Of a DNA stretch of 29,488 nucleotides, positions 8,514 to 22,505 are shown one piece after another (within the stretch, counting starts at the first letter, position 1; each line of letters opens with the position of its first letter). The notes below the pieces were generated by a model, which did no database searches, had not been told where the DNA came from, and saw nothing but the letters and a program-made list of their open reading frames with translations. The stretch comes from an uncultured Candidatus Saccharibacteria bacterium (GTDB lineage: Bacteria > Patescibacteriota > Minisyncoccia > UBA6257 > UBA9933): NCBI GenBank assembly GCA_964362685.1, contig CAYIFL010000001.1:1-29488 (forward strand). The letters run 5' to 3'. A program made the translations under genes and the position numbers.

Positions 8514-9251
8514 TCACTTGTCGAAGGTTACGAGCCCTTGCGCTTCTTTATATCTCTCAGGCGTGCCAATATCAAGAAAATCATCCTCCATTACAAAGCC
8601 ATGGCAATACTCACCTAGTACCGAGGGGAAAAAATGGTATTCAATCGAAAAAGAATCTTCCTGCGGCATATGAGCAAACGCATCTTTCTTCATTACATAT
8701 ACACCTGCATTTACCAGTCCTTCCTCGTTCACGCCATCTTTTTCCCGAAAACTTTGAATCCATCCTTCTGTATCAATCTCTACTCTACCGTATGCTGACG
8801 CATCAGATTTTTTTCCCAGAAGAATAGAAACAAGGGCGTCTTTTTCACGATGAGCTCCATACAAATCACGAAAAGGAGGCGCCATAACCTGATCTCCGTT
8901 CATCACAAAAAAATGATCCGTGCGTATCAAATCTTTTGCTCGCTTAACTGCGCCGCCGGTTCCTAAAGGAATATCTTCTTCTGAAAAAACGATTTCAACA
9001 TTCTCTCTACCAAGAGGTTTGTAATCTCGAAAGTGATCTATCACCTGATTCTTGAGGTAGCCCACGCTTAAAATCATGCGGCGGAATCCATGGCGCGCAA
9101 GCATATCGATTGCGCGTTCAAGGAACGGCCTGCCGCCGACCTCAGCCATCACCTTTGGCCGATCAGAAACAACAGACTGCAGACGGGTTCCTTTCCCGCC
9201 CGCAAGAATCAATACATCGCTTGTATGAAAATCATCAAAAGGGTTCGACAT
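8514..9251 (-). CDS. hddC: D-glycero-alpha-D-manno-heptose 1-phosphate guanylyltransferase-like nucleotidyltransferase
   Basis: ILAGGKGTRLQSVVSDRPKVMAEVGGRPFL, LGTGGA, VMNGD, NAGVY, FLDIGTPERY; adjacent to hddA. Start placed at MSNPF (9251). Confidence 0.82.
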   Translation of the reverse strand: MSNPFDDFHTSDVLILAGGKGTRLQSVVSDRPKVMAEVGGRPFLERAIDMLARHGFRRMILSVGYLKNQVIDHFRDYKPLGRENVEIVFSEEDIPLGTGGAVKRAKDLIRTDHFFVMNGDQVMAPPFRDLYGAHREKDALVSILLGKKSDASAYGRVEIDTEGWIQSFREKDGVNEEGLVNAGVYVMKKDAFAHMPQEDSFSIEYHFFPSVLGEYCHGFVMEDDFLDIGTPERYKEAQGLVTFDK

Positions 9252-9261
9252 ATAGCGGGGA

Positions 9262-10275
9262 CTATGCCTGAATATTTTTTTCTGGCGCATAGTAAACCAC
9301 CTGGCTCCCCAAGTGATCAAATAAAATCGGGACATAAAGGAGATGTTTTAAGCGCTCCTTCACCGCCTTTTGTTTTTCAGGCGCAACAAAGAAAACCATA
9401 AAGCCGCCTGCACCAGCACCCAAGAGTTTGCCGCCCCAGGCACCGGCGCCTCTCGCCGCTTCGTATATCTCATCTATGGCAGAATTGCTGATTTGCGATC
9501 CTAAACTTTTCTTGATCTGCCAGGCTTCGTGGAGCAGACGCCCAAAATCCTCGAATGCGCCTTTATGCACCACCTCTATTGCCTCTTCAACCATATCCCG
9601 CATAATCCGGAGCGCTGATCCCTTTTCATTATCTGCCGTACTCTTCACTTGCTCTGCAGCGATGTCAGAGGCAGTGCGCGTGAGTCCGGTAAAAAACATC
9701 ATAAGATGGCTCTGGAACGCCTCCATGCGCTTGGTCGTAAGAAGCACCGGATGCACCGCAATAAGATGTGGTCCGCCAAATTCGATTTTATTTAGTCCCC
9801 CAAATGCAGCTGCGGCTTGATCCTGCGACCCGACATTCTCTTTGAGGCGTTCCTGCTCAATATGGATTGCATCGAGCATTAAGCGCCGCTTTGTAACCAT
9901 GCGTCCATCCAGGGCATGAAGCGCATGAAGCAAACCCACCGTAAAGGACGAACTTGATCCCAAACCAGAACGCGCCGGCAGATCTCCCTGATGGTGTATT
10001 TCGATGCCTTTTTGCACATTCAAGAATTTCAGAACCTCCCGCACTGCCGGATGCTCTATTTCTTCCTGTTCCTTCACAAGCTCTATTTTAGACCATACCA
10101 CACGATTTTTATGCTCGAAAAAAGGCGGCAAGTGCCTGCAGGTAATATAACAATACTTATTAATAGTCGCTGAAAAAACCGCACCATTCCGATTTTGGTT
10201 TTGATTATACCATGCGGGATAATCAGTGCCGCCGCCGAAAAAAGAAATACGAAAAGGGGTTCGAGTAATAACCAT
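9262..10275 (-). CDS. hddA: D-glycero-alpha-D-manno-heptose 7-phosphate kinase (GHMP kinase)
   Basis: TRTPFRISFFGGGTDYP, DLPARSGLGSSSSF, GSQDQAAAAFGG, GGKLLGAGAGGF. Confidence 0.9.
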   Translation of the reverse strand: MVITRTPFRISFFGGGTDYPAWYNQNQNRNGAVFSATINKYCYITCRHLPPFFEHKNRVVWSKIELVKEQEEIEHPAVREVLKFLNVQKGIEIHHQGDLPARSGLGSSSSFTVGLLHALHALDGRMVTKRRLMLDAIHIEQERLKENVGSQDQAAAAFGGLNKIEFGGPHLIAVHPVLLTTKRMEAFQSHLMMFFTGLTRTASDIAAEQVKSTADNEKGSALRIMRDMVEEAIEVVHKGAFEDFGRLLHEAWQIKKSLGSQISNSAIDEIYEAARGAGAWGGKLLGAGAGGFMVFFVAPEKQKAVKERLKHLLYVPILFDHLGSQVVYYAPEKNIQA

Positions 10276-12107
10276 TAGTGGATATCGGGCATCGCCGGAT
10301 GTTCCCAGTCGGAAACCGGCTCGACGCCTATCATATTTTCTCTGAATTCTTCACGCGGAAGATACGGGTACATATCTTCAATAGGCGTCTTCCATCCGAA
10401 GATGCGCGGATTATACACATGCTCTTCATAACAATTTACCACACATACAACCGGACCTTCCATAGCCAAGACTTTCCGTATACCTTCCCGGACTCCAGCG
10501 TTATTCCCGATCTGAACCGTGGGCATTCCATACGCCTGGCATATTTTTATAAAATCCGGCGGATTGTATCCCTTTGGCCCGCATGCTTCCATTCTGCCTT
10601 GAAAATTAGTCTTTTGATAAGACTTAGTAATGCCGTAGATGCGATTATCGATAATAAAGGTTTTAAATCCGAGATTATAATTCAGCACCGTCTGAATCTC
10701 CTGGATATTCATATTGAATCCGCCGTCGCCGATCGTCGCAACCACATTGTGTTTTTTATCAGAGCCGAGCCAGGCGCCCATAGCGCCAGCAAAAGAAAAT
10801 CCCATGGGCGAATTGCCATTATTCGTGATGTTCCGCTGGCCGCGCTTTGTTTCAAAAGAATGATTTGAGGCAACGATATTGCCGCCGCAATCACCTACCA
10901 AAATATCATTTGGTCCCATCTCTTCGGAAAGAATCCGAAAGAAATAATATGGATGCACATTAGACCTATCCAAGCTGGTGTACTCCGGCAAAACCGGATC
11001 ATATTTTTCTTTCCAGTGCATCACTTTTTTAGTCCATGCGGAAATATCCGGCAAGGACACATTCGCTATTTTATCAAAAAGACGCCGCAGAAAGATTTTC
11101 GCGTCGCAAAATACGTTTTCATCAAAAGGAATCTGCTGGAGTTTTTTCTGGAGGAGTGACGGATCAACGTCAATTACCCATTTTTTGGCGCCGCGCGCGA
11201 ATGTTTGCAAATTGCCGCCGGTGATTCTCCCGGAGATACGGCTGCCTACCGCCAAAAGCAAATCAGCATTTTGAAGGCCGAAATTACGCCCCCTTCCTCC
11301 ATAGGTGCCTACCCTGCCGCCATACCACTGCCAATCCGAGGTTACTGCATCGAGCGCATTCCACGTTGGAAATACCGGCATCTTCAATCGCTCGCCCACT
11401 GCCCATAACTCCTCCATTGCGCCCGCGATCCGCACGCCGCCGCCAATGAGCATCACCGGACGCTTGGCACTCATTAAATCCTGGAGCAATGAATCGATTT
11501 TTCTATCGATATATAAAAAATTATACGTGGCCCTCGCGGCTTCCGCATCAAATCCCGTGAGCTTATCTGGCTCGATTAATTCCTTGGCAATATTTAAGGG
11601 GAGATCAATAAGCACTGGCCCTGGCCTGCCTTCGCGCGCATGAAAAAGCGCCTTCTGCAACTCATATTTAATACTTGCGGCATCTTGAATCATCACCGCG
11701 TACTTAGTGATTGGCTTTACAATACTCACAATATCGGTTTCCTGAAAGCCAACCTGCCGCACTTCAGGATCAGGCCGCAAAAATTGCGAATTGACTTGCC
11801 CCGTAATAAAAAGGCACGGCACAGAGTCATAATAGCAATTGCCGATAGGAGTGACCATATTCATGCCTCCGGGACCGCTTGTTGCAATAGTTACGCCGGG
11901 CTTGCCGCTTATTTTTGCGTAACACTCCGCGGCAAAACCCCCTCCCTGCTCGTGCATGACCGCGACATAGCGCGTTTTATCGGTTTTCGTAAACGCGTCA
12001 ATAAGATCGCCGATCGCGGAACCATACACCACAAACATATCCGTAATGCCCAAATCAGCCAGATACTGAATTATAAAATCTGCCACGCGCATTTTTCCAG
12101 AAGACAT
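10275..12107 (-). CDS. ThDP-dependent acetolactate-synthase-like enzyme (YerE-like sugar C-C ligase candidate)
   Basis: Catalytic HEQ, ATSGPG, FAD-domain ADLLLAVGSR, ThDP motif GDGGFNMNIQE...DNRIYG. TAATG stop/start coupling to hddA. Start placed at MSSGKMRVADF (12107). Confidence 0.88.
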   Translation of the reverse strand: MSSGKMRVADFIIQYLADLGITDMFVVYGSAIGDLIDAFTKTDKTRYVAVMHEQGGGFAAECYAKISGKPGVTIATSGPGGMNMVTPIGNCYYDSVPCLFITGQVNSQFLRPDPEVRQVGFQETDIVSIVKPITKYAVMIQDAASIKYELQKALFHAREGRPGPVLIDLPLNIAKELIEPDKLTGFDAEAARATYNFLYIDRKIDSLLQDLMSAKRPVMLIGGGVRIAGAMEELWAVGERLKMPVFPTWNALDAVTSDWQWYGGRVGTYGGRGRNFGLQNADLLLAVGSRISGRITGGNLQTFARGAKKWVIDVDPSLLQKKLQQIPFDENVFCDAKIFLRRLFDKIANVSLPDISAWTKKVMHWKEKYDPVLPEYTSLDRSNVHPYYFFRILSEEMGPNDILVGDCGGNIVASNHSFETKRGQRNITNNGNSPMGFSFAGAMGAWLGSDKKHNVVATIGDGGFNMNIQEIQTVLNYNLGFKTFIIDNRIYGITKSYQKTNFQGRMEACGPKGYNPPDFIKICQAYGMPTVQIGNNAGVREGIRKVLAMEGPVVCVVNCYEEHVYNPRIFGWKTPIEDMYPYLPREEFRENMIGVEPVSDWEHPAMPDIH

Positions 12108-12116
12108 AGCAACTAT

Positions 12117-12145
12117 AATGTATGCCCGATTGAGTAGTGTGTCAA
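12117..12145 (-). promoter_or_regulatory. sigma70-type promoter of ThDP-hddA-hddC-GT4-rml operon
   Basis: TTGACA-17 nt-TACATT, ending 9 nt before ATG 12107. Confidence 0.65.
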
Positions 12146-12160
12146 CAGGGAAGGATTTGT

Positions 12161-12742
12161 TTAGTTCTTCTTGGTAACTTTTACCTCGAGTCCTAAATGC
12201 GGCAATGCGCGCAAAAGCGTAAGGCACGCGTCCCACTGGTCTGATTCGCCTTTAAGCATATAGGCAATCCATTCATCAAGCGGCATTTCTAAAAGCTCCA
12301 TTTGCTCGCTTGGGTCTAGTTTCGGCTCTCCTACTTTTTTACAACCGGTTGCAAGAAAACTATAAAACTTGGTGGTTGAATTTCTTGAGTTAATAAATCC
12401 TGATCCTAAACTAATCACTTCTTTTGGGTCATAGCCGGTTTCTTCTTTTAATTCCCGCTTGATAATTTCTTCGGGCAATTCACCTTTGAAGCTGCCTTGG
12501 CCCCCGGGCGTTTCAATCATAATCTGGCCTGATCCCTGTTTGTATTGGCGAATTAAAATAACTTTGCCGTCTTCGGTAATGGGCAAAACCGCTGACCACG
12601 ACGGCTGTTCGTTAAAATAGAAGTCGGTTTCCTTGCCGGTGTGATCCCTGAATCGTTGTTTATCTAAACGCTTGCCGTATCCTTCGGCTAGTGTTTCCGG
12701 CTTCCCAATTTTTTCCCAGGGGACAATGCTCATATCGTCCAT
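12161..12742 (-). CDS. Nudix hydrolase A (ADP-ribose/NDP-sugar pyrophosphatase-like)
   Basis: VILIRQYK...ETPGG and Nudix box GQGSFKGELPEEIIKRELKEETGY. The true start may be the Met at 12733. Confidence 0.88.
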   Translation of the reverse strand: MDDMSIVPWEKIGKPETLAEGYGKRLDKQRFRDHTGKETDFYFNEQPSWSAVLPITEDGKVILIRQYKQGSGQIMIETPGGQGSFKGELPEEIIKRELKEETGYDPKEVISLGSGFINSRNSTTKFYSFLATGCKKVGEPKLDPSEQMELLEMPLDEWIAYMLKGESDQWDACLTLLRALPHLGLEVKVTKKN

Positions 12743-12776
12743 AGTATTTGAAATTAAAAAGATTTCAAGCTAATGT
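12741..12776. promoter_or_regulatory. Overlapping divergent promoters sharing a palindrome
   Basis: Plus strand TTGAAA(12748)-17-TAATGT(12771); minus strand TTGAAA(12768)-16-TACTAT(12746). The two -35 boxes are the arms of TTGAAAT-N7-ATTTCAA. Confidence 0.5.
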
Positions 12777-12789
12777 AGTAACACTATCT

Positions 12790-13290
12790 ATGACACACAT
12801 TACCTTTAATGACCTAACAAAACTGCGCGAAGAGTTAAGGGGTAAAACCATTGTGTTTTGCTCTGGTGGTTTTGATTTAACACATGCGGGACACGTCTTA
12901 TTCTTCGAGGACTGTAAAAAGCATGGAGATATCTTAGTTGTTGGCCTTGGTTCTGATGCGGCACGGCGGGGTGAAAAAAAAGATGATGGACGGCCTATTA
13001 TAAACGAAAAGATGCGCCTTAAAATGGTTTCATCTTTGAAACCAGTTGATTATGCTTTTATAATTGAGCATTTAGCGGAAACTCACAAACTTGATCCACT
13101 TAACAAAATTTTTGAAGTCTTACAACCAGATGTATATGTGATAAATGCTGATGCATCACATATCCCATACAGAGAAGACCTTGTAAAAAAATTCGGCGCA
13201 AAACTTATTATTTTAGACCGCTGGTGCCCGCCGGAATACGATGCAATTTCAACAACTAAACTGATTGAAAAAATTAAAAAACTGCCATAA
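12790..13290 (+). CDS. Cytidylyltransferase-like / HldC (RfaE domain II)-like nucleotidyltransferase
   Basis: IVFCSGGFDLTHAGH (HxGH), LVVGLGSD, GRPII, VDYAF, ISTTKLIEKI. Start placed at ATG 12790. Confidence 0.85.
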   Translation: MTHITFNDLTKLREELRGKTIVFCSGGFDLTHAGHVLFFEDCKKHGDILVVGLGSDAARRGEKKDDGRPIINEKMRLKMVSSLKPVDYAFIIEHLAETHKLDPLNKIFEVLQPDVYVINADASHIPYREDLVKKFGAKLIILDRWCPPEYDAISTTKLIEKIKKLP

Positions 13291-13345: not shown

Positions 13346-13918
13346 CTAATGCAGCCTTTTGAGGTCGTAGCCCAGATGCGGCAACGCCAGAAGTGTTGTC
13401 GCGATAGACTTTGAGTCAGAAACCTCTCCTTCCCAAATTTTCTGAATCCAATCAGAAATGGATAAGGTCATCCTTTCCAGGATTTCTGTTCTTTTCAACC
13501 GCGGCTCCGCAACTTGACGGCAACCTGTTGCCAAAAAAGGTACGTAGTGATTAACATCCGTTGCTGGATCAAAATACGCCTTAGTGGGACCGACCTGAAA
13601 CAATCGGTCCGCGGTAAAACCCGTCTCATCTCGAAGCTCCTTGATCGCAACCTCCTCGGGCTTATCGACAAGTGTGGGATTCCCGCCAGGGAGTTCGAAG
13701 ATGAACTGGTTAGCGGCAATACGGAATTGCCGAAGAACTATTACCTCATACTCTGGAGTTACAGGAAAGATGATAATAGGTGCTTTCGCGCCGCCCCACA
13801 AAAGGAATTTCTCGACACCGTGAGAAAACTCAAAGCTCCTTCGGAATACCCGCTTTCCCCATTCCTCTATAATGAGTTCATCTTCTCCGACAACTTTCGG
13901 AGCCACTAATTCACTCAT
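13346..13918 (-). CDS. Nudix hydrolase B (variant Nudix box)
   Basis: VIVLRQFR...FELPGG and box GNPTLVDKPEEVAIKELRDETGF. AAGGAGG at 13931-13925 supports the start at 13918; the upstream ORF-track extension crosses a terminator. Confidence 0.85.
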   Translation of the reverse strand: MSELVAPKVVGEDELIIEEWGKRVFRRSFEFSHGVEKFLLWGGAKAPIIIFPVTPEYEVIVLRQFRIAANQFIFELPGGNPTLVDKPEEVAIKELRDETGFTADRLFQVGPTKAYFDPATDVNHYVPFLATGCRQVAEPRLKRTEILERMTLSISDWIQKIWEGEVSDSKSIATTLLALPHLGYDLKRLH

Positions 13919-14001
13919 CATCCGCCTCCTTCGTGCAAAGGTTGAAAAGCCTCTTCCTGGAGCTGCCCCATTCAAACATATCGACGGCTTCATTGTCAAA
14001 C

Positions 14002-14039
14002 AAAAAACGGGGCTTCGACTCCTCCATGCCAAAACCCCG
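14002..14039 (-). terminator. Intrinsic terminator downstream of radical SAM gene
   Basis: cggggttttggc-atggagga-gtcgaagccccg 12-bp stem (G-U pairs) followed by TTTTTT. Confidence 0.75.
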
Positions 14040-14041
14040 CG

Positions 14042-14069
14042 TCGATGTTCAAGGTTCAATACTCAATGT
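14042..14069. repeat. Four degenerate 7-bp units immediately after radical SAM stop
   Basis: tcgatgt tcaaggt tcaatac tcaatgt. Confidence 0.5.
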
Positions 14070-15710
14070 TTATTGGTGCCGCGCGCTCATCGGCACAAGC
14101 CGTGCTTGTTCGCTCTCCGACAGCTCCCAGAAGGTCCGGCCGCCTAGAAGATCGCGCTTGAGCGATTTCTGCAGGTGGTCAATCCAAAGATCGATATTGC
14201 GGATAGCCACCGGACCGAGCTTTGGATCCTTGAGTAACCGTTCTCGGTACTCCGGCCGCTTGTAGTAAGCGGCGTGTGCCCAATCGCGGAACGCGATGAT
14301 CTGCTCAGTAGTCAAAGCGTCGCCATCGTAGTGTGGCTCGCTCTCTTCCAAGTATTGGGCATGCCCCGGCCAGCCTGGACCACCAAGCCGCTCAGGCAAT
14401 GGATATCCCTTTGTCTTGGCTTCTCGGTAGAGTTCTGACCCAGGAAGTGCTTGCGCGCAGTAGAAATTGCCGTAGGTGCCGTTTAGATCGCAGGCAAGCT
14501 TAAAGGTCGCTTCAATGGACTCCACGGTCTCGCCGGGAAGCCCGAAGATATAGTTCAATCCGCCTTCAATACCCGCCTCATGCATTCGCCGAACCACATC
14601 GTAAATGGTGTCTTCGCTAAACTTCTTGGCTTGACGAGACCGAACGGTGCTGTTCGCCGCCTCGATACCAAGCCCAAGCCAGCGGAAACCAGCGCTGCGG
14701 AGTAGATCGAGGTACTGCGGTTTGCAGGTGTCAATCCGGAAATAGCACCAGAAGTTAAAAATATCCCGAGCTTCCGGAAAAAGCTGGGTGAGAAGCTTGG
14801 CGATTTCCAGTGGGTGCGAACCCAACCCGAACATTTCGTCTGGGATCTTAAAAAACCTGACCCCATACGTTCTGTAGAGGTACAGAACCTCTTCCACGAA
14901 GAGCTTCGGCATAAGGTGCCGAAAGCTGTTCACGCCTGGCTTCAGTGCTCCGATCTGTTGCAATACCTGCTCGCCTTCGCGGTAGGGCGGCTGAATATTA
15001 CAGAAGTTACAGTGGAACGGACACCCCTCTGCTGAATAGGGATTGGCGTACGGCTCTGGAAGAATCTGCCCTTGTTCGTCAGTCACCCGATAGAACCGAT
15101 GCCAATGATGCGGCCGATACTTCCGCGGATCCATATACTTCCAGCCAGGAAGCGCTGGCTCTTGATTGAGGTCGATGAGCGGCGCTTCAGGACCATGCCC
15201 GATGCCGCTGTTATCCCGGTACCACAAGGACCGCACCTTATGGATATCTACCGGTCGTCCCCCTGCCTTCGTTGCCGCAAGGAGATCCTCCACGGTAATG
15301 GGCCCCTCGCCACCGCAGACGAAATCCACGGCTGGCTCGGTCTCGAGAGTATAAGCAGGAATCGCCGAGGGGTGTGTACCCGTGAGTATGATTGGGATTT
15401 CAGGCGACATCGCCTTGATCGCTTCGGCGAACTCCCGCGCAGATGGCATAGTCTGCGTGCTTGCCGAAGGGTTGTACCCGTAAACCGGCAAAACCACGAG
15501 GCGGGGATGTGCCGCACACACTTCTTCTGCCATCCGTTGTGGCGTCCAGTCCAGGACATTCGCATCAAAAAGATCCATACTCCACTTGCGGCGTTCGCCG
15601 TAAGCGAGCATGAAACGCGCCTTAGCAGGCGGCTCAATTGCATCTGGCACCCCGCCTCTAATATCAAGTACGTTCATCGGAATAACGAAAAGCACGTCCA
15701 ATCGGCTCAT
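14070..15710 (-). CDS. Cobalamin-binding radical SAM protein (class B methyltransferase-like)
   Basis: N-terminal B12-binding-like region (ILTGTHPS...DFVCGGEG), CPFHCNFC (CxxxCxxC), IPDEMF, GIEAAN, YIFGLPGET. SD AAGGAG 5 nt upstream. Confidence 0.9.
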   Translation of the reverse strand: MSRLDVLFVIPMNVLDIRGGVPDAIEPPAKARFMLAYGERRKWSMDLFDANVLDWTPQRMAEEVCAAHPRLVVLPVYGYNPSASTQTMPSAREFAEAIKAMSPEIPIILTGTHPSAIPAYTLETEPAVDFVCGGEGPITVEDLLAATKAGGRPVDIHKVRSLWYRDNSGIGHGPEAPLIDLNQEPALPGWKYMDPRKYRPHHWHRFYRVTDEQGQILPEPYANPYSAEGCPFHCNFCNIQPPYREGEQVLQQIGALKPGVNSFRHLMPKLFVEEVLYLYRTYGVRFFKIPDEMFGLGSHPLEIAKLLTQLFPEARDIFNFWCYFRIDTCKPQYLDLLRSAGFRWLGLGIEAANSTVRSRQAKKFSEDTIYDVVRRMHEAGIEGGLNYIFGLPGETVESIEATFKLACDLNGTYGNFYCAQALPGSELYREAKTKGYPLPERLGGPGWPGHAQYLEESEPHYDGDALTTEQIIAFRDWAHAAYYKRPEYRERLLKDPKLGPVAIRNIDLWIDHLQKSLKRDLLGGRTFWELSESEQARLVPMSARHQ

Positions 15711-15801
15711 GACTTCTCCTTTGCCCTACAGCGATTCAGCGGCTTGTACCGCTTACGATTTAGTTATGCGTTATAGAAAGTTGTCAAAGCAAGCTACAGC
15801 A

Positions 15802-15830
15802 ATTGTATGCGCTAGAAACAAAATCGTCAA
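15802..15830 (-). promoter_or_regulatory. sigma70-type promoter of radical SAM gene
   Basis: TTGACG-17 nt-TACAAT, giving a leader of about 85 nt. Confidence 0.7.
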
Positions 15831-15831
15831 A

Positions 15832-16788
15832 TTATGAGATGGGAGTTTTATCTTCCGGGCTAACCTTGATTGGGGCAAAATCAACCGGCATTCTTTTTTC
15901 CACCGCTTCTCGATTCATATTTTTTATATACCCCACAAATTCACAATTAATACTTGCCACTAAGCTTCCCATCTCTACGGCATCAAGAAATGATCCTCCC
16001 TCATGCCGTTTTACCAAATACCCCGCAGCAAAGGCATCGCCAGCGCCGGTGGTATCTACGGCCATACAAGGAATCACAGGAAAAAGCAAATACTCATATA
16101 ATGGCGTGAGATGGGCTACTAAAACTCCCCGGCTCCCTAGAGTAATTATTACCTGTCCGGCGCCTGCATCTAAAATCTTTTTTGCACAATCTACAACATC
16201 GGAAATATTCACTAATTTTTTTTGAAAAAGAACCTCGCACTCGTTTTGATCCATTTGCACGATATCGGCATACTTTAAATAGGTTGCCCAATCCGGCCAT
16301 CCGCGGTTATACATCTTGCCCCCTTTGTCCGCGCCAAATGGCTTCCGGTGTACATCCACATACACAAGCGCTTTGCTATTTTGCTTTACTTTTATAATTG
16401 CCTCTGGGTCAATATCATCAATATTTCCAAAATTAAATATGACAATATCCACATCGTGGATAAAAGGTTCAATATGCTCGTACGTGGTTGGCTCCATTTG
16501 AACTTTTCTTGTTACAAAATGTTTATTCCCTTCGTGATGATCAGTACCTGCTGGATTTATAAATATGCCACTGGTATTTACAAATGGATAATTCTTTCGA
16601 TAAAATTCTTTTACTTCATCTATATCCTCTTTACCAACACTGCCAACAAAATAGATTTTTGAATCATTGGTAAATAAAGCAGCAAAAGGTGCGATTGCGC
16701 TTTCAGTCATTCCGCCCCAGCCGCTATAGGTTCCTGCATCAGAATGCACGGTGTGGCGGAGCATAGATCCTACTAAACAAATCTTCAT
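15832..16788 (-). CDS. PfkB/ribokinase-family carbohydrate kinase
   Basis: VYVDVH, VIITLGSRG, AVDTTGAGDAFAAGY (PfkB signature 2). Confidence 0.9.
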   Translation of the reverse strand: MKICLVGSMLRHTVHSDAGTYSGWGGMTESAIAPFAALFTNDSKIYFVGSVGKEDIDEVKEFYRKNYPFVNTSGIFINPAGTDHHEGNKHFVTRKVQMEPTTYEHIEPFIHDVDIVIFNFGNIDDIDPEAIIKVKQNSKALVYVDVHRKPFGADKGGKMYNRGWPDWATYLKYADIVQMDQNECEVLFQKKLVNISDVVDCAKKILDAGAGQVIITLGSRGVLVAHLTPLYEYLLFPVIPCMAVDTTGAGDAFAAGYLVKRHEGGSFLDAVEMGSLVASINCEFVGYIKNMNREAVEKRMPVDFAPIKVSPEDKTPIS

Positions 16789-16795
16789 TGTTCAA

Positions 16796-16825
16796 AAAGT
16801 ACCATAGATATTCTATTCCCGTCAA
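16796..16825 (-). promoter_or_regulatory. sigma70-type promoter (extended -10) of pfkB-like gene
   Basis: TTGACG-18 nt-TACTTT, with TGG directly before the -10; ATG 7 nt later. Confidence 0.6.
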
Positions 16826-16833
16826 TTGCCAAT

Positions 16834-16871
16834 AAAAAAAGAGGACCGAGCGAGTGGTTCGCCCGATCCTC
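16834..16871 (-). terminator. Intrinsic terminator downstream of IMPase B
   Basis: gaggatcgggcga-accac-tcgctcggtcctc 13-bp stem followed by T7. Confidence 0.85.
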
Positions 16872-16889
16872 CGCAAGGTTCAGCTCTCG

Positions 16890-17687
16890 CTAGGAGCCGC
16901 AGATACTCATGAGCTCCACCCAGATCTCTCGGTTCCTTGCGAGGATAACCGGGATCTTTTTCTGTTTATACTCAACAGTGCTTCCATCCCAACGAGAAAC
17001 CATACAGCCAGCCTCTAAGGCAAGCAGCTCAGCCGCACCAAGGTCAAAGGGCGTCGCGCCTCCATGTACGTAAGCGCCGATTTTCCCCTCAACCAATAGA
17101 AGCGTGGTCCCGGTAAACGAGTGTACTTCAAGAAGAAAACATCCACGCGATTGCACTTTCTGTGCTATCGCCGGATTTTCTACTGCACCGATACTCACAA
17201 AAAGCTCGTTCGCGAGGTCTCCGCCTCGAGACGTCACTATCCGCTCTCGGTTAATGAAAGCGCCTCTGCCACGTCTTGCGTGCGCGAAAACGCCTCTTGC
17301 CGGAAAGAATATCAAGCCGAGCTCCGGAACACCGTTCAAGGTAAGCCCTGCCGAAATGGAAAAGTAATCCATCCCAGCCGCATATCCGGCAGTACCATCA
17401 ATTGGATCAATGAGCCACTCGTAGCCAGAACTGGAACGCTCTTCTGCGCCTTCTTCGCCGCGGATGCCATGATCCGGCCAGTGCGTCCGAAGACACTGAT
17501 GTATGCGCTCTTCGATTAACGTATCAGCTCTTGTGACGAGATCTTTTGCTCCTGATTTGATAAATCCCTTGAGCGACTGTTCCATCCTGCCGGACTGGCG
17601 AATAGCCAGTGCTTCCCTGCCAAGTTTTGAGAAAAGATCGCCAAGCACCTCAAGCGCCTCACCTGAGCCAAAGCCTTTCGTTGCCAT
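16890..17687 (-). CDS. Inositol monophosphatase-family phosphatase B
   Basis: DLVTRAD, GEE, WLIDPIDGT, PFDLGAA...EAG. GGAGG 7 nt upstream of ATG 17687 (MATKG). Confidence 0.88.
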   Translation of the reverse strand: MATKGFGSGEALEVLGDLFSKLGREALAIRQSGRMEQSLKGFIKSGAKDLVTRADTLIEERIHQCLRTHWPDHGIRGEEGAEERSSSGYEWLIDPIDGTAGYAAGMDYFSISAGLTLNGVPELGLIFFPARGVFAHARRGRGAFINRERIVTSRGGDLANELFVSIGAVENPAIAQKVQSRGCFLLEVHSFTGTTLLLVEGKIGAYVHGGATPFDLGAAELLALEAGCMVSRWDGSTVEYKQKKIPVILARNREIWVELMSICGS

Positions 17688-17764
17688 CTCCCATCCTCCC
17701 TGCGTGTGTACCAACGCGTAATTGCATTGGTAACCAACCACTCATGTCAAAAAGTCCAGCCCGT

Positions 17765-17792
17765 AGCTTACCACAGATTTCTTAATTTGCAA
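17765..17792 (-). promoter_or_regulatory. Putative promoter of IMPase B
   Basis: TTGCAA-16 nt-TAAGCT, with TGG before the -10. Confidence 0.5.
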
Positions 17793-17804
17793 GGATAATT
17801 TTTC

Positions 17805-18593
17805 TTAAATCATTTGTTGAATCTCATCTGCTATGTCTTTATTCCTTGCAAGTATAGCGGGGATTCTCTTCTGTTTAAAATCAATCCGCCCACCATCTGT
17901 TTGAAAAACCGCGCATCCAGCCTCCTCCGCAATTAACACTGCGGCGCCTAAATCAAAAGGAGACGCGCCGCCATGCAAATAAAAACCTATTTTACCCTGA
18001 ATGAGCAAGAGCGTGCTTCCAGTAAAGGAGTGAATCTCTAAAATCATACAACCCAACGAACGAACTTTTTCGGCTATTTCTGGCTTTGTAATAGAATCTA
18101 CGCTTACAAATAACTCGTCCGCAATGCGGCCGCCTTGGGGCACTACAATTTTTTCTCCGTTTATAAAAGCACCCTTGCCGCGGCTCGCATGCGCAAAAAT
18201 ATCATTCGCAGGAAAGTAGAGTGCGCCGAACTCCGGAATGCCGTTTTTAATAAGTCCGACTGAAATCGAGAATAAATCCATTCCGGCTGCAAAACGATGG
18301 GTTGCGTCTATTGGATCGAAAAGCCACTCGTATCCTGAAGAAGATTGCACTTCCGCGCCTTCTTCTCCACGAATGCCGTGCTCGGGCCAATGAGTCCTCA
18401 CGCATTCAGTTAAAAATTTCTCTGAAAATAGATCTGCTTTAGTTACTATTTCCTTTACAGCTGATTTTTTGATAGTGGGATCTAATCTTCCCTCCTCGCG
18501 CATTGTAAGTATCTCTCTGCCTATGTTAGGCAGAAGATCCTTAAAAATTTCAAGGGCTTGTTCATGGTTAAAATTTTTTCTAGATTCATCCAT
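17805..18593 (-). CDS. Inositol monophosphatase-family phosphatase A
   Basis: EIVTKAD, GEE, WLFDPIDAT, PFDLGAA...EEAG; colinear with IMPase B over its whole length. Confidence 0.88.
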   Translation of the reverse strand: MDESRKNFNHEQALEIFKDLLPNIGREILTMREEGRLDPTIKKSAVKEIVTKADLFSEKFLTECVRTHWPEHGIRGEEGAEVQSSSGYEWLFDPIDATHRFAAGMDLFSISVGLIKNGIPEFGALYFPANDIFAHASRGKGAFINGEKIVVPQGGRIADELFVSVDSITKPEIAEKVRSLGCMILEIHSFTGSTLLLIQGKIGFYLHGGASPFDLGAAVLIAEEAGCAVFQTDGGRIDFKQKRIPAILARNKDIADEIQQMI

Positions 18594-18595
18594 AG

Positions 18596-19780
18596 TTACA
18601 GTTTTAAAACTGCTTGCTTTATGCTTTTCAATGCTTTCCCAATATTCTCAATCGAGTTCGCATACGAGAATCTTAAATACCCTTCGCCGTAACTGCCGAA
18701 TGCAATGCCGGGCAAAACCGCAACTCCTGCTTTTTCCAGAATATAGTCAGCCATTTTTTTTGAGGTTATGCCAAATGATTTAATATTCGGAAAAACATAA
18801 AAAGCCCCTTTGGGCACTTGGCACGTTATTCCGGGAATTTCATTCAAACCCTTCACGATAAAATTCCGTCTTTTTTCAAATTCTTTTACCATACTTGAAA
18901 CCTCCTTTTGAGAACCATTTAGGGCCTCGATGCCTGCCCATTGCACAAAAGTTGTGGTACACGCTATAGAATTTACAAGCAGATTTTCTATGTGAGGCAT
19001 AAACCGCTCGGGCATTATAAAATATCCCAGGCGCCAACCAGTCATCGCATAGGTTTTTGAAAATCCATCAATCAAAATAGTCCGCTCTTTTACCCCTGGC
19101 AAACTATAAAAACTATGAAAGGGCAAATTATCGTAAATAATTCTTGAATAAATTTCATCACTTATAACCCAGGCATTTGTTTTTTTGATAAGCTTCGCGA
19201 TCATGGCTAAATCCTCTTTGGGCAATACCCCGCCCGTAGGATTACTCGGAGAATTTAAAATAATTAACTTTGTTTTTTTCGTTATTGCCTTTTTAAATGC
19301 ATACAAATCAAAACTAAAATGATTTTCTTCTAAAATCGGCACAGGCTTTGGCGTGCATCCCAAAAAATCAACCATATTTTCATACACCGGAAATCCTGGA
19401 TTAGGAAAAATCACCTCATCACCTTTTTCTAAAATCGCGGTCATGGCAAGATAGATCGCAGTCTTCGCGCTTGGCGTAACCACAACTTCTCCCGGACGCA
19501 CCGAAACGCCGCGTGTTTCTGTAATGTACTCTGCAATCGCTTGCCGCAGCTCTTTTATGCCTAAGGTTGGCGTATATTTGGTTTTTCCTTGCTCGATTGC
19601 CTTAATGCCGCTTTCGCGAATGTGCTCTGGCGTTTGAAAATCCGGCTCGCCGATTTCCAAATGGATTATGTGTTTGCCTTTCCGCTCGAGTTCCTGCGCT
19701 TTTGCTAAAACCGCATACGCTGCCTCGCCTTTCATAACGGCTGTACTGCGCGACAAGCCCGGAAAATGTTTTTTTACCAT
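18596..19780 (-). CDS. PLP-dependent aminotransferase class I/II (aspartate aminotransferase-like)
   Basis: LEIGEPDF, NSPSNPTG, SDEIY, GFSKTYAMTGWRLGY (Schiff-base Lys), YLRFSYA. Confidence 0.93.
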   Translation of the reverse strand: MVKKHFPGLSRSTAVMKGEAAYAVLAKAQELERKGKHIIHLEIGEPDFQTPEHIRESGIKAIEQGKTKYTPTLGIKELRQAIAEYITETRGVSVRPGEVVVTPSAKTAIYLAMTAILEKGDEVIFPNPGFPVYENMVDFLGCTPKPVPILEENHFSFDLYAFKKAITKKTKLIILNSPSNPTGGVLPKEDLAMIAKLIKKTNAWVISDEIYSRIIYDNLPFHSFYSLPGVKERTILIDGFSKTYAMTGWRLGYFIMPERFMPHIENLLVNSIACTTTFVQWAGIEALNGSQKEVSSMVKEFEKRRNFIVKGLNEIPGITCQVPKGAFYVFPNIKSFGITSKKMADYILEKAGVAVLPGIAFGSYGEGYLRFSYANSIENIGKALKSIKQAVLKL

Positions 19781-19786
19781 AACGTA

Positions 19787-19815
19787 ATACTTGCATCAAA
19801 CGGCTCTTGTGTCAA
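19787..19815 (-). promoter_or_regulatory. Putative promoter of aminotransferase-IMPase A operon
   Basis: TTGACA-17 nt-AAGTAT, preceded by TGc (extended -10); ATG 6 nt later. The -35 overlaps the upstream terminator U-tract. Confidence 0.45.
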
Positions 19816-19850
19816 AAAAAGAAGGGCCTGCCACGATACGTGACAAGCCC
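19814..19850 (-). terminator. Intrinsic terminator downstream of Zn-ribbon gene
   Basis: gggcttgtcacg-tat-cgtggcaggccc 12-bp stem followed by ttc-T7. Confidence 0.8.
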
Positions 19851-19878
19851 CATGGCGTCGAAGAGGTATTTTCCCCTT

Positions 19879-20208
19879 TTAGGGCGTTATCCATGCCTCT
19901 TCAAGGGATATCCCTCTTTCGATTTCCACCTCGTAATCAGCGAGAAGACGCACCCTGTGAGCGCGCTTGAAAAACGGCTTTAAGTTCCTGTGGGTATTGA
20001 ATCCATACTTACCAAAGATGTCCTCCACCCAAAAAGATCTCCCGCAACTTGCGCATCCCACATGTTTTACGAGATAGAAATGCACGTTCATCGGAAAGAA
20101 TCCCGGCATCTGTATAACAGTAGGAATACCGCCGCCACAGTCCGGGCACTTCCCTTCGATATAGATTAAGGAAAATTCCACGAGAGCCTTGGTCTTTAAA
20201 CATTCCAT
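19879..20208 (-). CDS. Hypothetical small Zn-ribbon protein
   Basis: CPDC...CASC pairs; GAGGTG 5 nt upstream of ATG 20208; own promoter and terminator. Confidence 0.7.
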   Translation of the reverse strand: MECLKTKALVEFSLIYIEGKCPDCGGGIPTVIQMPGFFPMNVHFYLVKHVGCASCGRSFWVEDIFGKYGFNTHRNLKPFFKRAHRVRLLADYEVEIERGISLEEAWITP

Positions 20209-20275
20209 CAAAGCACCTCTCTTTTTTACTACGAGTCAGTTGCGCCCTATGCACTTTTCAAGTTTCAAGATTTAT

Positions 20276-20304
20276 AAGATACCATAAGACCTGCAAAATA
20301 ACAA
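20276..20304 (-). promoter_or_regulatory. Putative promoter of Zn-ribbon gene
   Basis: TTGTTA-17 nt-TATCTT, with TGG before the -10. Confidence 0.4.
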
Positions 20305-20336
20305 TTGATCAATAATTAAAACCAACCACATAGCAG

Positions 20337-21272
20337 TTATATATTCGCAAACCCGTTCCGTTTTATAACTTTATACCCCTTGATGAGTTCGGCAATACCT
20401 TCCTGCATCGAAACTTGCGGCATAAAACCGGTTTTCTCGATTTTTTCATTCGAAACAATGTAGTCGCGCTTGTCCGGATCCTCACCAATTGAAGCTTCCA
20501 CAAAATGGAAATCAGAAACTTGTTTTTTTATTTCTTCGCAGAGTTCCCGCTTACTTAAATTCGCATCCGAAAGCCCGACATTATACGCTTCATCTTTCAT
20601 CTGTTCAAAATTATTCATTGCATGCATAAACGCCCGCGCCACATCCCGGATATGGATATAATTCCTCTTAAAGTCAGCTTCGAATAAAACGACAAAGCGA
20701 TCATTTACCGCACGGTACACAAAATCATTAACCAAAAGATCCAGGCGCATCCGAGGACTTACGCCAAACACGGTTGCAAGCCGAAACACAACCGCATTGC
20801 CTGCGGACAAAATGGTTTTCTCTGCTTCAACTTTTAAACGGCCATAGAGCGAAATCGGATTCAAAGGACTTTTTTCATCGCAGTACTGGCCTTTTTCACC
20901 AACACCGTACCCACTATTCGTATTCGGATATAAAATCCGCTGATTGTCTTTTTTTAAAGCTAAAATGGTTTTTATGGCATCAAGGTTAACGCTTGCTGCG
21001 GCTAGAGGGTCCCTATCGCAGGCTGGCGCACCCACAATCGCGGCCAAGGGAATAATATAATCAACGCCGTCCAGATTTTGCGCGATTGTTTTCACACCCC
21101 GCACATCCCCCCGCACAATCGTCAGAGTCTTATGGTGGCAGAGATCCAAAAGCGGCGCCTGATTGTACATAAAGTTATCAAGCGCAATAACCTCATGTCC
21201 CATGTTCAGCAATTCGCCGGTCAAAACCGAACCAATATAACCTGCGGCGCCGGTAATAAGAATTTTCGACAT
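20337..21272 (-). CDS. NAD-dependent SDR, Cj1427-like GDP-D-glycero-D-manno-heptose C4-dehydrogenase
   Basis: GAAGYIGS, IIPLAAIVGAP, YPNTNSGYG.GEK, YGRLK, FRLATVFGVSPRMRLDLLVNDF.YRA, IGEDPDKRDY.VSN, FAN. These match the Campylobacter jejuni Cj1427 sequence as I recall it; not verified by alignment. Confidence 0.8.
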   Translation of the reverse strand: MSKILITGAAGYIGSVLTGELLNMGHEVIALDNFMYNQAPLLDLCHHKTLTIVRGDVRGVKTIAQNLDGVDYIIPLAAIVGAPACDRDPLAAASVNLDAIKTILALKKDNQRILYPNTNSGYGVGEKGQYCDEKSPLNPISLYGRLKVEAEKTILSAGNAVVFRLATVFGVSPRMRLDLLVNDFVYRAVNDRFVVLFEADFKRNYIHIRDVARAFMHAMNNFEQMKDEAYNVGLSDANLSKRELCEEIKKQVSDFHFVEASIGEDPDKRDYIVSNEKIEKTGFMPQVSMQEGIAELIKGYKVIKRNGFANI

Positions 21273-21326
21273 AAATAAAAAATTAAAGATAATAAATAAT
21301 AAATTGTGTTTATTATTTTTTATATA

Positions 21327-22505
21327 TTATTTATCATATCCTACGCTATCTAACACGATATTTGAAATAAATGCAATATCCTCTTCTTTAAGCGAAGGGT
21401 TATTGGGCAAAAACAAGCCCGCATGATGAATTTGGTCAGCTACTGGCGCTGAAAACTTGCCGTACCGCTCAAACCAAAAGGGATGGAGTCCCAGATTGCC
21501 CGCGGAGAAAATCCGGGTTTCAATGCCGTTATCCTCAAGCGCGCGCACGATCTTTCTTCTCTCTTCAATATCATGAGCTACCATGCCGAAATGAATTGAA
21601 CAAATCACTGAATCCGGATCCGCTTGTTGATACCTAAATCGGTCGCCCAAAAGTTTTTTATAGAGAAAATGGTTTTCATGCCTGCGCTTCACAAGCCAAT
21701 CCATCTTATCAATCTGGCGAATGCCTAAAAATGCGCCGAGATCTGTTGAACGAAAATTAAATCCCGGCTCATAGAACACAAAGGGCGAATGAAAATCATC
21801 AATCTCGTATTTTCGTATGAGCTCTTCTTGTGCGGCTGTATCCAGATCCTTGCCCCAGCCATGGCTCCGCGTCATTAAGAGAAGATCGTTAAAAATTTTA
21901 TCATCCGTAGAAACCGCGCCGCCTTCAATGGTAGAAATCTGGTGGCCAAAGTAAAAGGAAAAACTGCTCATATCGCCATAGGTACCTACCTTTCTGCCGC
22001 GGTACAACGATCCCATTGCCGCGCACGCGTCTTCCAAAAGAAAAAAACCGTATTTTTCTTTGAGCGCCATCATCTCCTCCATTTTATGCGGCACGCCCAA
22101 CACTTGCACCAAGACCACGGTAGACGGCTCATGCTGTTTCAATAATTCTTCTAGATGGCCGAGGTCTAAACCAAACGTATCCGGATCCGCCTCGCACATA
22201 ATGGGCTCGAAACCGAATTGGATTGCGGGCGCAACAGTCGTTGCCCAACCCACGCTTGGCACAATCACCTTTTTATTTTTGAGACGACGAGATAAAAGAA
22301 GGACGTAATACATCAGGAGATTCGCAGATGATCCGGAATTCACGAATACCGAATGCTGTCTCCCGAGCCAATCACTCCATTTTTGCTCAAATTCGGACGT
22401 AAGGCGATGCTTCGTAAGCCGCGGGTTGGTTTTAAGCCAATCAATCAACGCGTTAATATCGCCCTGATCAATTGTATCTTCCGCCAAATAATATTTTATA
22501 TCCAT
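21327..22505 (-). CDS. DegT/DnrJ/EryC1/StrS-fold PLP enzyme, ColD-like NDP-4-keto-sugar 3-dehydratase
   Basis: VNSGSSANLL, LLEDACAAMG, SFSFYFGHQISTIEGG (His at the usual Schiff-base Lys), RSHGW, GFNFR. Confidence 0.8.
   Translation of the reverse strand: MDIKYYLAEDTIDQGDINALIDWLKTNPRLTKHRLTSEFEQKWSDWLGRQHSVFVNSGSSANLLMYYVLLLSRRLKNKKVIVPSVGWATTVAPAIQFGFEPIMCEADPDTFGLDLGHLEELLKQHEPSTVVLVQVLGVPHKMEEMMALKEKYGFFLLEDACAAMGSLYRGRKVGTYGDMSSFSFYFGHQISTIEGGAVSTDDKIFNDLLLMTRSHGWGKDLDTAAQEELIRKYEIDDFHSPFVFYEPGFNFRSTDLGAFLGIRQIDKMDWLVKRRHENHFLYKKLLGDRFRYQQADPDSVICSIHFGMVAHDIEERRKIVRALEDNGIETRIFSAGNLGLHPFWFERYGKFSAPVADQIHHAGLFLPNNPSLKEEDIAFISNIVLDSVGYDK

Follow-up and report, generated by a model that had tools for sequence, protein, structure and literature searches.

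A probable GDP-heptose tailoring locus with a predicted thiamine diphosphate-dependent C-branching step in a Candidatus Saccharibacteria genome

Results

A minus-strand glycan locus joins heptose-type genes to a YerE-like gene

The window analysed here is a whole contig of 29.5 kb (29,488 nucleotides; CAYIFL010000001.1) from the genome of an uncultured Candidatus Saccharibacteria bacterium (515 kb, roughly 80% complete), and according to the list of open reading frames (ORFs) it consists almost entirely of one glycan locus on the minus strand. Our subject is the stretch 8514-22505 of this locus, in which genes resembling those for guanosine diphosphate (GDP)-linked heptoses stand together with a gene for a YerE-like enzyme dependent on thiamine diphosphate (ThDP). 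The proteins of this genome have their nearest relatives in Patescibacteria (Candidate Phyla Radiation, CPR), at 68-77% identity.

A first-pass annotation had assembled five genes of this stretch into a pathway modelled on yersiniose A synthesis. All five ORFs are present on the minus strand and encode the domains NTP_transferase, GHMP, three-domain ThDP, extended short-chain dehydrogenase/reductase (SDR) and DegT, respectively; seven genes located between them had been omitted. Across 8514-22505 the genes follow one another in the order nucleotidyltransferase, GHMP kinase, ThDP enzyme, NUDIX hydrolase, cytidylyltransferase, NUDIX hydrolase, B12-binding radical S-adenosylmethionine enzyme (B12-rSAM), PfkB kinase, two IMPase-family phosphatases, class I aminotransferase, a small ORF, SDR and DegT, and the stretch is bordered by glycosyltransferase (GT) genes. 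The genes on which our argument is built are the following (PLP, pyridoxal phosphate; PMP, pyridoxamine phosphate; NDP, nucleoside diphosphate).

8514..9251 (longest ORF to 9335), minus strand: HddC-like sugar-1-phosphate nucleotidyltransferase; Pfam NTP_transferase
9262..10275, minus strand: HddA-like GHMP sugar kinase (D-glycero-D-manno-heptose-7-P 1-kinase type); Pfam GHMP_kinases_N and _C
10275..12107, minus strand: YerE-like ThDP-dependent carboligase, proposed C4-branching enzyme; Pfam TPP_enzyme_N, _M, _C
14070..15710, minus strand: B12-rSAM; Pfam B12-binding and Radical_SAM, weak NCBIfam matches
18596..19780, minus strand: class I (AspAT/AroAT-like) aminotransferase AT1, partner of the ThDP enzyme; Pfam Aminotran_1_2
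20337..21272, minus strand: predicted Cj1427-like NAD-dependent GDP-heptose C4-dehydrogenase; extended SDR, PDB 6VO6/6VO8
21327..22505, minus strand: predicted ColD-type (His-for-Lys) PLP/PMP-dependent NDP-4-keto-sugar 3-dehydratase; motif FYFGHQISTIEGG

A Cj1427-like dehydrogenase and a ColD-like dehydratase are natural neighbours

The SDR gene lies 54 nt downstream of the DegT gene, and its product aligned without gaps over 309 residues with PDB entries 6VO6/6VO8, which we take to be Cj1427 of Campylobacter jejuni (E = 7e-115, ~57% identity), the next PDB match reaching only 7e-20. The YxxxK motif is conserved, Y-G-R-L-K of the window protein being aligned with Y-G-I-D-K of the two structures. 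This PDB comparison bears out the earlier proposal that the protein is a close full-length relative of the presumed Cj1427 and not of epimerases or 4,6-dehydratases. Its orthologues share 57% identity in Nitrospira and 70-77% in CPR bacteria.

The DegT protein carries His188 at the position of the Schiff-base Lys, within FYFGHQISTIEGG, and has only three Cys residues (104, 161 and 302), hence no E1-type Fe-S motif; domain scans of the window found no gene for a ferredoxin-reductase-like E3 partner. ColD (2GMS; 5e-46, 161 bits) headed its PDB ranking and was followed by E1 (3BCX; 4e-35), so that the expected His-type, ColD-like character was confirmed. With the RfbH model the protein scored 207 bits, below the equivalog cut-off of 423, and by sequence it forms a distinct subfamily among the 3-dehydratases, with orthologues that share the His motif at 64% identity in Nitrospira and 73-80% in CPR bacteria. 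Precedent for a joint action of two such enzymes comes from C. jejuni: Cj1427 oxidises GDP-heptose by a ping-pong mechanism in which 2-oxoglutarate re-oxidises the tightly bound NADH, and together with the ColD-type C3-dehydratase of serotype HS:5 it yields GDP-D-glycero-4-keto-3-deoxy-heptose of m/z 616.08 in vitro (PMC10680097), a product that the authors present as a novel in vitro combination (PMC10680097, PMC10440746). In one related locus (L100:9572-9949; related loci are given by L numbers) a RidA (Ribonuc_L-PSP) gene directly follows the Cj1427-like SDR gene, near the ColD-like gene, which fits the enamine/imine intermediate released by ColD-type enzymes.

HddA- and HddC-like genes are packed against the ThDP gene

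Heptose as the scaffold is indicated by the kinase and the nucleotidyltransferase. For the GHMP kinase HddA was the best NCBIfam model (152 bits, cut-off 600), and its top four PDB matches were all heptose-7-P kinases (3K85, 4N3O, 4USK and 4USM; 1e-39 to 1e-35), fucokinase following at 1e-19. For the nucleotidyltransferase, which is probably of the guanylyl type, HddC was the best NCBIfam model (156 bits, cut-off 300) and Yersinia HddC (5XHW/6JQ8, E = 8e-37) the closest solved structure; orthologues with 36-49% identity likewise lie behind the GHMP gene at the Nitrospira and CPR loci. The identification of the pair as hddA and hddC is therefore upheld by the nearest models and solved structures, whereas both proteins remain far below the NCBIfam equivalog level.

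The start codon of the GHMP gene and the stop codon of the ThDP gene share one base in the sequence TAATG at 10277-10273. Translation of the nucleotidyltransferase probably starts at ATG 9251, 10 nt past the GHMP stop codon (TAG 9264-9262), since a start at either in-frame alternative, 9290 or 9335, would make it run into the GHMP gene. Of the translational linkage to the ThDP gene that had been claimed for both genes, the overlap thus stands for the kinase, while the nucleotidyltransferase gene is tightly packed behind it. GmhA is encoded elsewhere in the genome, on contig C8 (C8:2948-3406, 213 bits, cut-off 209).

The ThDP enzyme is nearer to YerE-like enzymes than to acetohydroxyacid synthase

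With the model for acetohydroxyacid synthase (AHAS) the ThDP enzyme scored 372 bits, the cut-off being 538. Its best PDB match was JanthE (8RPH, 308 bits), followed by 5AHK, which we take to be PpYerE (264 bits), and by AHAS structures at 230 bits or less, and the gap became wider with a family profile of 16 sequences (JanthE 422, 5AHK 364, AHAS 306 bits or less). According to its paper, 8RPH is JanthE, a ketone-accepting YerE-like enzyme. The window protein lacks the AHAS motifs RFDDR and GQHQMW and has a C-terminal tail in common with JanthE; H52-E53-Q54, with the catalytic Glu, is invariant across its family, and the ThDP-binding motif at residue 460 reads GDG-X24-DN, most family members having NN. 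In a maximum-likelihood tree the family, of ~63% identity, formed a clade with 100/100 support on a long stem, very far from the true AHAS of Ca. N. defluvii. Within it, bacterial and archaeal sequences interleave, and the window sequence pairs, with weak support, with that of Ca. Harrisonbacteria L044, where the order is also ThDP-GHMP-nucleotidyltransferase. Scores, motifs and tree agree with the first-pass annotation in placing the enzyme nearer to the YerE-like enzymes JanthE and 5AHK than to AHAS.

The genomic setting is in line with this placement. Neither IlvC nor a second gene resembling acetolactate synthase (ALS) was found in the host genome, and no branched-chain amino-acid pathway is visible there, while Ca. 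N. defluvii encodes a separate true AHAS (835 bits with the AHAS model, versus 375 for the ThDP copy of its operon). Varied 2-oxoacids serve YerE-like enzymes as donors for addition to 3-deoxy-4-keto NDP-sugars (PMC9306805, PMC12247030), and we propose that the ThDP enzyme would accept an NDP-4-keto sugar as electrophile.

The gene set is conserved as an operon, mainly in Nitrospira

A scan of reference genomes with the ThDP enzyme yielded 71 loci with sequences of about 57-67% identity. Nitrospira/Nitrospirales, including Ca. N. defluvii, account for 47 of them, and the remainder belong to CPR bacteria, Woese- and Pacearchaeota, SAR11, Prochlorococcus and Oligoflexia. Families that accompany the ThDP gene were counted by unbiased clustering of all neighbouring ORFs, with the following result.

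Class I aminotransferase (AT1): 48 loci of 71
His-type DegT: 47 loci of 71
B12-rSAM: 47 loci of 71
GHMP kinase: 44 loci of 71
Cj1427-like SDR: 41 loci of 71
Nucleotidyltransferase: 41 loci of 71

Orthologues in the ThDP loci share about 54% identity with the GHMP kinase of the window, ~37% with the nucleotidyltransferase, ~57% with the SDR and ~64% with the His-type DegT protein. Co-occurrence of the five genes, which the first-pass annotation had named as a check on its proposal, is far beyond chance: they form one co-directional operon in about 45 genomes, mostly Nitrospira, and in these about 45 loci the single operon comprises DegT-His, Cj1427-like SDR, GHMP, nucleotidyltransferase, AT1, B12-rSAM and ThDP genes. 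The operon of Ca. N. defluvii reads DegT, SDR, GHMP, nucleotidyltransferase, AT1, B12-rSAM, ThDP and a second rSAM gene, after which come an 1800-aa multi-glycosyltransferase and a GT9 gene; Gmd is absent from the full Nitrospira operon. Elsewhere, ThDP family members are encoded beside a bona fide Gmd (519 bits) and together with genes for Fcl-like SDRs and RmlC-like proteins, which ties the family to GDP-sugars. Among 400 sampled genomes of the phylum to which the window belongs none had an orthologue of the ThDP enzyme and 10 had relatives of 34-40% identity, so the gene is sporadic, a distribution that looks like horizontal spread.

Two CPR loci, L076 and L079, hold the closest CPR relatives of the window SDR (73-75% identity) together with a DegT protein of 77-80% identity and the same motif, a B12-rSAM gene, a GHMP gene (64-68%) and a nucleotidyltransferase gene. 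They are without the YerE-like gene and AT1 and instead have an Fcl/ColC-like reductase gene and an extra, divergent split transketolase gene. A split transketolase or mini-E1 takes the place of the YerE-like gene at L076:7051-8816, L079:7050-8815, L077:10937-12715 and L098:12722-13889, the cluster transketolase being an extra copy about 40% identical to the other transketolase of the genome. We considered it as a clean replacement of the YerE-like enzyme and have softened this idea, given that L054 has both, that an Fcl-like reductase is present and that a transketolase could supply sedoheptulose-7-P; its role could be either branching or this supply. Our reading of the locus is a heptose core (HddA-, HddC-, Cj1427- and ColD-like genes and B12-rSAM) to which a branching module (the YerE-like gene and AT1) is joined.

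In Nitrospirales the surroundings of the cassette resemble an island for flagellar glycosylation. On one side there is FliW or a YcgR-type PilZ protein plus an HD protein (L014:930-1409; L030:824-3005 and 13565-20153), and the 1800-aa protein that follows, ahead of GT9, combines multiple GT2, methyltransferase, GT1 and TPR parts.

The aminotransferase AT1 tracks the ThDP gene and suggests a tailored acyl donor

AT1 has its nearest structures in the aromatic aminotransferase of P. horikoshii (1DJU and 1GD9, 1e-93), and K242 and R370 are invariant in its family, which occurs in 41 Nitrospira loci. Its gene is directly beside the ThDP gene in L001, L049, L052, L057 and L068, all loci without heptose genes, and occurs with a ThDP fragment at a contig edge in L070; in the heptose-less loci an NDP-sugar-type SDR resembling a counterpart of YerF often comes next after this gene pair. 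AT1 is absent from cassettes without a YerE-like enzyme, and it tracks the ThDP gene rather than the Cj1427/ColD pair. Closure of the glutamate/2-oxoglutarate loop for Cj1427 and ColD was considered as a role for AT1 and rejected, as AT1 is missing where these two occur without the YerE-like enzyme and stands beside the ThDP gene where both are missing. The conserved alpha-carboxylate Arg failed as a discriminator between donor supply and transamination of the branch, because any Glu-dependent transaminase keeps it.

A PanB-type 3-methyl-2-oxobutanoate hydroxymethyltransferase (303 bits, cut-off 272) adjoins the ThDP gene in L035, L044, L046, L063, L008 and L099, which hints at a hydroxymethylated 2-oxoacid as donor; no PanB was found in the genome of the window itself. 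ErwE and similar YerE-like enzymes use functionalised donors and reject pyruvate (PMC9306805). Taken together, the PanB-like neighbours and AT1, which has aromatic and aspartate aminotransferases as its nearest solved relatives, suggest that the donor is a tailored, amino-acid-derived 2-oxoacid and not plain pyruvate. We therefore do not retain the two-carbon acetyl or hydroxyethyl branch of the first-pass annotation: AT1 and PanB hint at a non-pyruvate donor, the B12-rSAM enzyme is conserved, and a hydroxyethyl product is without support as the window has no YerF-like reductase.

A proposed pathway and its alternatives

Considering gene content and conservation together, we regard the tailoring of GDP-heptose, with C-branching by a ThDP enzyme as one of its steps, as the probable, though far from certain, function encoded at the locus. 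GmhA, encoded outside the window, would make D-glycero-D-manno-heptose-7-P. After activation by the HddA- and HddC-like enzymes, the Cj1427-like SDR would oxidise C4, and the ColD-like His-type enzyme would remove the C3-OH to give GDP-3-deoxy-4-keto-heptose with the C6-OH retained. The YerE-like enzyme would then decarboxylate a 2-oxoacid and add the acyl anion to the C4 ketone, giving a tertiary alcohol with an acyl branch; AT1 would most likely supply the 2-oxoacid from an amino acid, so that groups other than acetyl could form the branch. The B12-rSAM enzyme may modify the sugar further, probably by C-methylation, before the GT4 and GT2 glycosyltransferases bordering the stretch would transfer the product to a surface glycan. 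In hand are gene identity by homology, conserved co-occurrence and the published demonstration that the first two tailoring steps can proceed in vitro, and from these we infer C4 branching, the identity of the donor, the roles of AT1 and B12-rSAM and the final product. No GDP-type C4 reductase was found at the window locus, whereas L076 and L079, which are without the YerE-like gene, have an Fcl-like one. With the Cj1427-like and ColD-like genes as natural neighbours and no C4 reductase at the locus, attack by an acyl-ThDP carbanion would be the most economical fate of the 4-keto sugar. Yersiniose-like logic applied to GDP-heptose is thus still the best reading, while the product first proposed was over-specific and the gene set behind it incomplete.

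Several points weigh against this pathway. The HddA and HddC assignments lie far below equivalog cut-offs, and in the roughly 80%-complete genome no GmhB was detected, either as a TIGR00213 match or by tblastn with a cluster-encoded GmhB-like HAD protein. The window has no YerF-like reductase, and neither it nor the rest of the genome encodes a counterpart of the YerF-like SDR subfamily that adjoins the ThDP gene in L001, L045, L057, L068, L052 and L061. The sequences compared with the ThDP enzyme did not include YerE, ErwE or MMAR_2332, so that the tree is without YerE, and heptose and Gmd contexts interleave in it with no sorting by context. The equation of 6VO6/6VO8 with Cj1427 and of 5AHK with PpYerE is a presumption; neither code occurs in the papers on these enzymes that we searched. 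No physiological substrate has been assigned to JanthE in its literature. Seven interleaved genes, which we refer to as module P, are not explained by the pathway. Finally, contig C3 of the same genome carries Gmd (518 bits, cut-off 415) and an Fcl-like gene as a pair, and the acceptor could accordingly be a 6-deoxyhexose. The earlier statement that no GDP-sugar 4,6-dehydratase is visible is correct for the window, whose only 4,6-dehydratase is a dTDP-type RmlB (6243-7295), and does not extend to the genome; retention of the C6-OH is in consequence likely rather than certain.

This Gmd gene is the starting point of an alternative that we consider unlikely, in which Gmd would provide GDP-4-keto-6-deoxymannose, the ColD-like enzyme would convert it into GDP-4-keto-3,6-dideoxymannose and the YerE-like enzyme would branch the latter into a GDP-linked analogue of yersiniose, the heptose genes feeding another, unbranched heptose residue. 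A hexose acceptor would agree with the above-cut-off Gmd score, with the 7 ThDP-bearing CPR, SAR11 and DPANN loci in which the family adjoins Gmd, with the interleaved contexts in the tree and with the fact that characterised YerE-type acceptors are all 3,6-dideoxy sugars. However, Gmd and the Fcl-like gene sit in a separate exopolysaccharide locus with its own glycosyltransferases and Wzx flippase, whereas in the window, in Nitrospira and in the CPR relatives the ColD-like gene adjoins that of the Cj1427-like SDR, and the ThDP and HddA-like genes overlap; moreover, the full Nitrospira operon manages without Gmd.

Similarly small is the chance we give to a locus without any sugar branching, at which an unbranched 3-deoxy-heptose, possibly C-methylated, would be made while the ThDP enzyme and AT1 form a separate small acyloin or amino-alcohol substituent or precursor from amino-acid-derived 2-oxoacids. 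The AT1-ThDP module does occur without Cj1427-like or HddA-like genes (L001, L052, L068), the Fcl-like reductase of some CPR cassettes could allow the synthesis of unbranched 3-deoxy-heptoses there, no acceptance of ketones was seen with MygE in vitro, and the gap in knowledge on JanthE noted above points the same way. Yet the window locus lacks a GDP-type C4 reductase that could resolve the 4-keto intermediate, the AT1-ThDP pair of the minimal loci is followed by an extended NDP-sugar-type SDR amid NDP-sugar enzymes, and the nearest characterised relatives of the ThDP enzyme are ketone-accepting, sugar-branching enzymes. That the ThDP enzyme is an ordinary AHAS for branched-chain amino acids, present in a glycan locus by happenstance, is very improbable: although the AHAS large subunit is its best NCBIfam model (E = 3e-111), the score remains below the curated cut-off, the AHAS motifs and IlvC are missing, and the family is conserved within sugar operons and very distant in the tree from the separate true AHAS of Nitrospira.

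Comparison with characterised pathways

The GDP-heptose pathway favoured here shares its chemistry with yersiniose A synthesis in Yersinia pseudotuberculosis (DdhA-D, YerE, YerF), to which ErwE (erwiniose), MMAR_2332 (caryophyllose) and MygE are long-branch relatives: an NDP-sugar would be converted to a 4-keto and then, by a His-type PMP enzyme, to a 3-deoxy-4-keto sugar, and an ALS-like ThDP enzyme would add a 2-oxoacid-derived acyl group to C4. The differences are considerable. The nucleotide is probably GDP in the window and cytidine diphosphate (CDP) in yersiniose, and the scaffold would be a heptose made via HddA/HddC-like enzymes. Oxidation at C4 would rely on a Cj1427-type dehydrogenase instead of a 4,6-dehydratase, as a result of which the C6-OH would be kept, and deoxygenation would be of the ColD type, without Fe-S cluster or E3, where yersiniose synthesis uses E1/E3. 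A YerF-like reductase is missing, and the class I aminotransferase and B12-rSAM are added conserved partners.

Among the capsular GDP-heptose enzymes of C. jejuni, the presumed Cj1427 shares ~57% identity with the SDR, and the HddA/HddC types are the nearest solved ones. The combination of Cj1427 with the HS:5 C3-dehydratase, however, is an artificial mix in C. jejuni, where 4-keto intermediates always go on to epimerases and C4 reductases; in our locus the enzymes are natural neighbours and capture by the ThDP enzyme is proposed. The C. jejuni/E. coli C3-dehydratases are only distantly related to the ColD-like protein of the window (about 160 bits). JanthE of Janthinobacterium sp. HH01 (8RPH, 8RPI, 8RPJ), the best solved relative of the ThDP enzyme, aligns end to end, shares the C-terminal tail and takes non-activated ketones as well as C3 to C6 2-oxoacid donors, but its ThDP-binding motif has CDG in place of the canonical GDG of the window enzyme, and the similarity is moderate at 308 bits. 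The colitose pathway (Gmd, ColD, ColC) likewise has a ColD-type His enzyme acting on a GDP-4-keto sugar, and L076 and L079 carry an Fcl/ColC-like reductase, whereas the window locus has no ColC-like reductase, its ColD-like enzyme probably acts on a heptose, and we propose branching, not reduction, of the keto group.

The B12-rSAM enzyme and the unexplained module P

Interleaved with the pathway genes, and surrounding the B12-rSAM gene, are the following members of module P.

12161..12742, minus strand: NUDIX hydrolase 1; Pfam NUDIX, weak NudE-like match
12748..13290, plus strand: HldC-like cytidylyl/adenylyltransferase; Pfam CTP_transf_like, the only plus-strand gene in the block
13346..14059, minus strand: NUDIX hydrolase 2; Pfam NUDIX
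15832..16788, minus strand: PfkB-family carbohydrate kinase; Pfam PfkB
16890..17741, minus strand: IMPase-family phosphatase 1; Pfam Inositol_P, HisN/CysQ/SuhB-like below cut-offs
17805..18593, minus strand: IMPase-family phosphatase 2; Pfam Inositol_P, HisN/CysQ/SuhB-like below cut-offs

From its sequence, the B12-rSAM enzyme is probably a class B C-methyltransferase; a PDB search returned no informative solved relative. It shares 36-40% identity with its counterparts in the Nitrospira, L076 and L079 cassettes and 60-63% with those of PfkB-containing cassettes; rSAM subtype and PfkB block co-vary. The PfkB kinase matched ribokinase best among NCBIfam models (74 bits; HldA domain only 27 bits) and belongs to a tiny family of 39 clusters. 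Inside the heptose cassettes of L098, L099 and L100 its gene adjoins B12-rSAM, at 63-73% identity, with only a reverse-strand cytidylyltransferase gene between the two in L100, and all three loci have IMPase and NUDIX genes along with it. The same cassette holds a YerE-like enzyme and PanB in L099 and a split mini-E1 in L098 and L100.

For the HldC-like protein the best NCBIfam model was rfaE domain II (86 bits, cut-off 181), and its orthologues in L098 and L100, of 47-57% identity, are on the opposite strand too. NUDIX 2 has relatives of 38-42% identity in L098 and L099, and NUDIX genes recur throughout L098-L100; the two NUDIX proteins of the window share 30% identity with each other. The IMPases are tandem paralogues with 57.5% identity and possible substitutes for GmhB. 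This idea in its plain form was weakened by L098, which has GmhA and a GmhB-like HAD protein within a cluster that also contains an IMPase gene, so the IMPases are not simply GmhB substitutes; we keep it as a possibility.

A more elaborate role for module P can be imagined, and we put it forward as a speculation with little chance of being right. PfkB, the HldC-like protein, both NUDIX hydrolases, both IMPases and the particular B12-rSAM subtype might form a Fom3-like 'nucleotide-handle' line that phosphorylates, nucleotidylates, C-methylates and finally sets free a small sugar or keto-acid. Once transaminated or oxidised, this compound could serve as the donor that the YerE-like enzyme adds to GDP-3-deoxy-4-keto-heptose, and the product would be a methyl-branched sugar of C10 or larger, of a kind never described.

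Flanking genes and host genome

Three further ORFs lie within or beside the stretch.

7307..8509, minus strand: GT4 glycosyltransferase; Pfam Glycos_transf_1, directly downstream of the nucleotidyltransferase gene
19879..20211, minus strand: small ORF of 110 aa; without Pfam match, may not be a gene
22519..23229, minus strand: GT2, polyprenyl-phosphate glycosyltransferase-like; Pfam Glycos_transf_2, at the head of the minus-strand block

The GT4 enzyme is a candidate transferase for the pathway product, and its orthologues likewise come after the nucleotidyltransferase gene in L076 and L098 (66% and 44% identity). Orthologues of the GT2 enzyme are found in the L076 and L098 cassettes at 51-57% identity, and the small ORF has no counterpart in the related loci compared. 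Downstream, the window encodes at 1856-7295 RmlA, RmlB (above cut-off), an RmlD-like reductase, a DUF218 protein and a TylC3-type C-methyltransferase, without RmlC; this set is probably a pathway for a deoxythymidine diphosphate (dTDP)-linked 3-C-methyl-6-deoxyhexose. The same C-methyltransferase family adjoins the cassette in L044.

The second exopolysaccharide locus of the genome, C3:3511-11607 (L074), comprises GT4, GT2, a NodU-like carbamoyltransferase, Gmd, the Fcl-like gene and the Wzx flippase; a genome of roughly 0.5 Mb thus has at least two sizeable glycan loci. With aragorn, a tmRNA with the tag AEKSAAPAFAFA was found in the host genome, which marks it as bacterial, and a tRNA-Ile with the anticodon UAU, uncommon in bacteria, was listed; no 16S gene was found on searching the host genome.

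Discussion

Characterised YerE-type sugars all derive from CDP-3,6-dideoxy-4-keto-hexose, and the literature we searched, which did not cover Krug et al. 2024, contains no description of a heptose-based or GDP-linked ThDP-branched sugar. If the proposed pathway is true, YerE-type C-branching would extend beyond the CDP-3,6-dideoxyhexoses of a few proteobacteria and mycobacteria to GDP-heptoses and GDP-6-deoxyhexoses in Nitrospira, which are key nitrifiers, and in CPR bacteria, DPANN archaea, SAR11 and Prochlorococcus. The 'unnatural' GDP-3-deoxy-4-keto-heptose obtained with C. jejuni enzymes would then be a natural intermediate, and the ThDP enzymes would make up a new, highly conserved carboligase family that accepts ketones and draws its donor from amino acids, of use for tertiary-alcohol biocatalysis. 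The pathway also predicts an unseen class of surface sugars, possibly on Nitrospira flagellin. For the Saccharibacteria host, a genome of about 0.5 Mb that spends roughly 5% of its length on this glycan locus suggests that the sugar matters for the episymbiotic surface.

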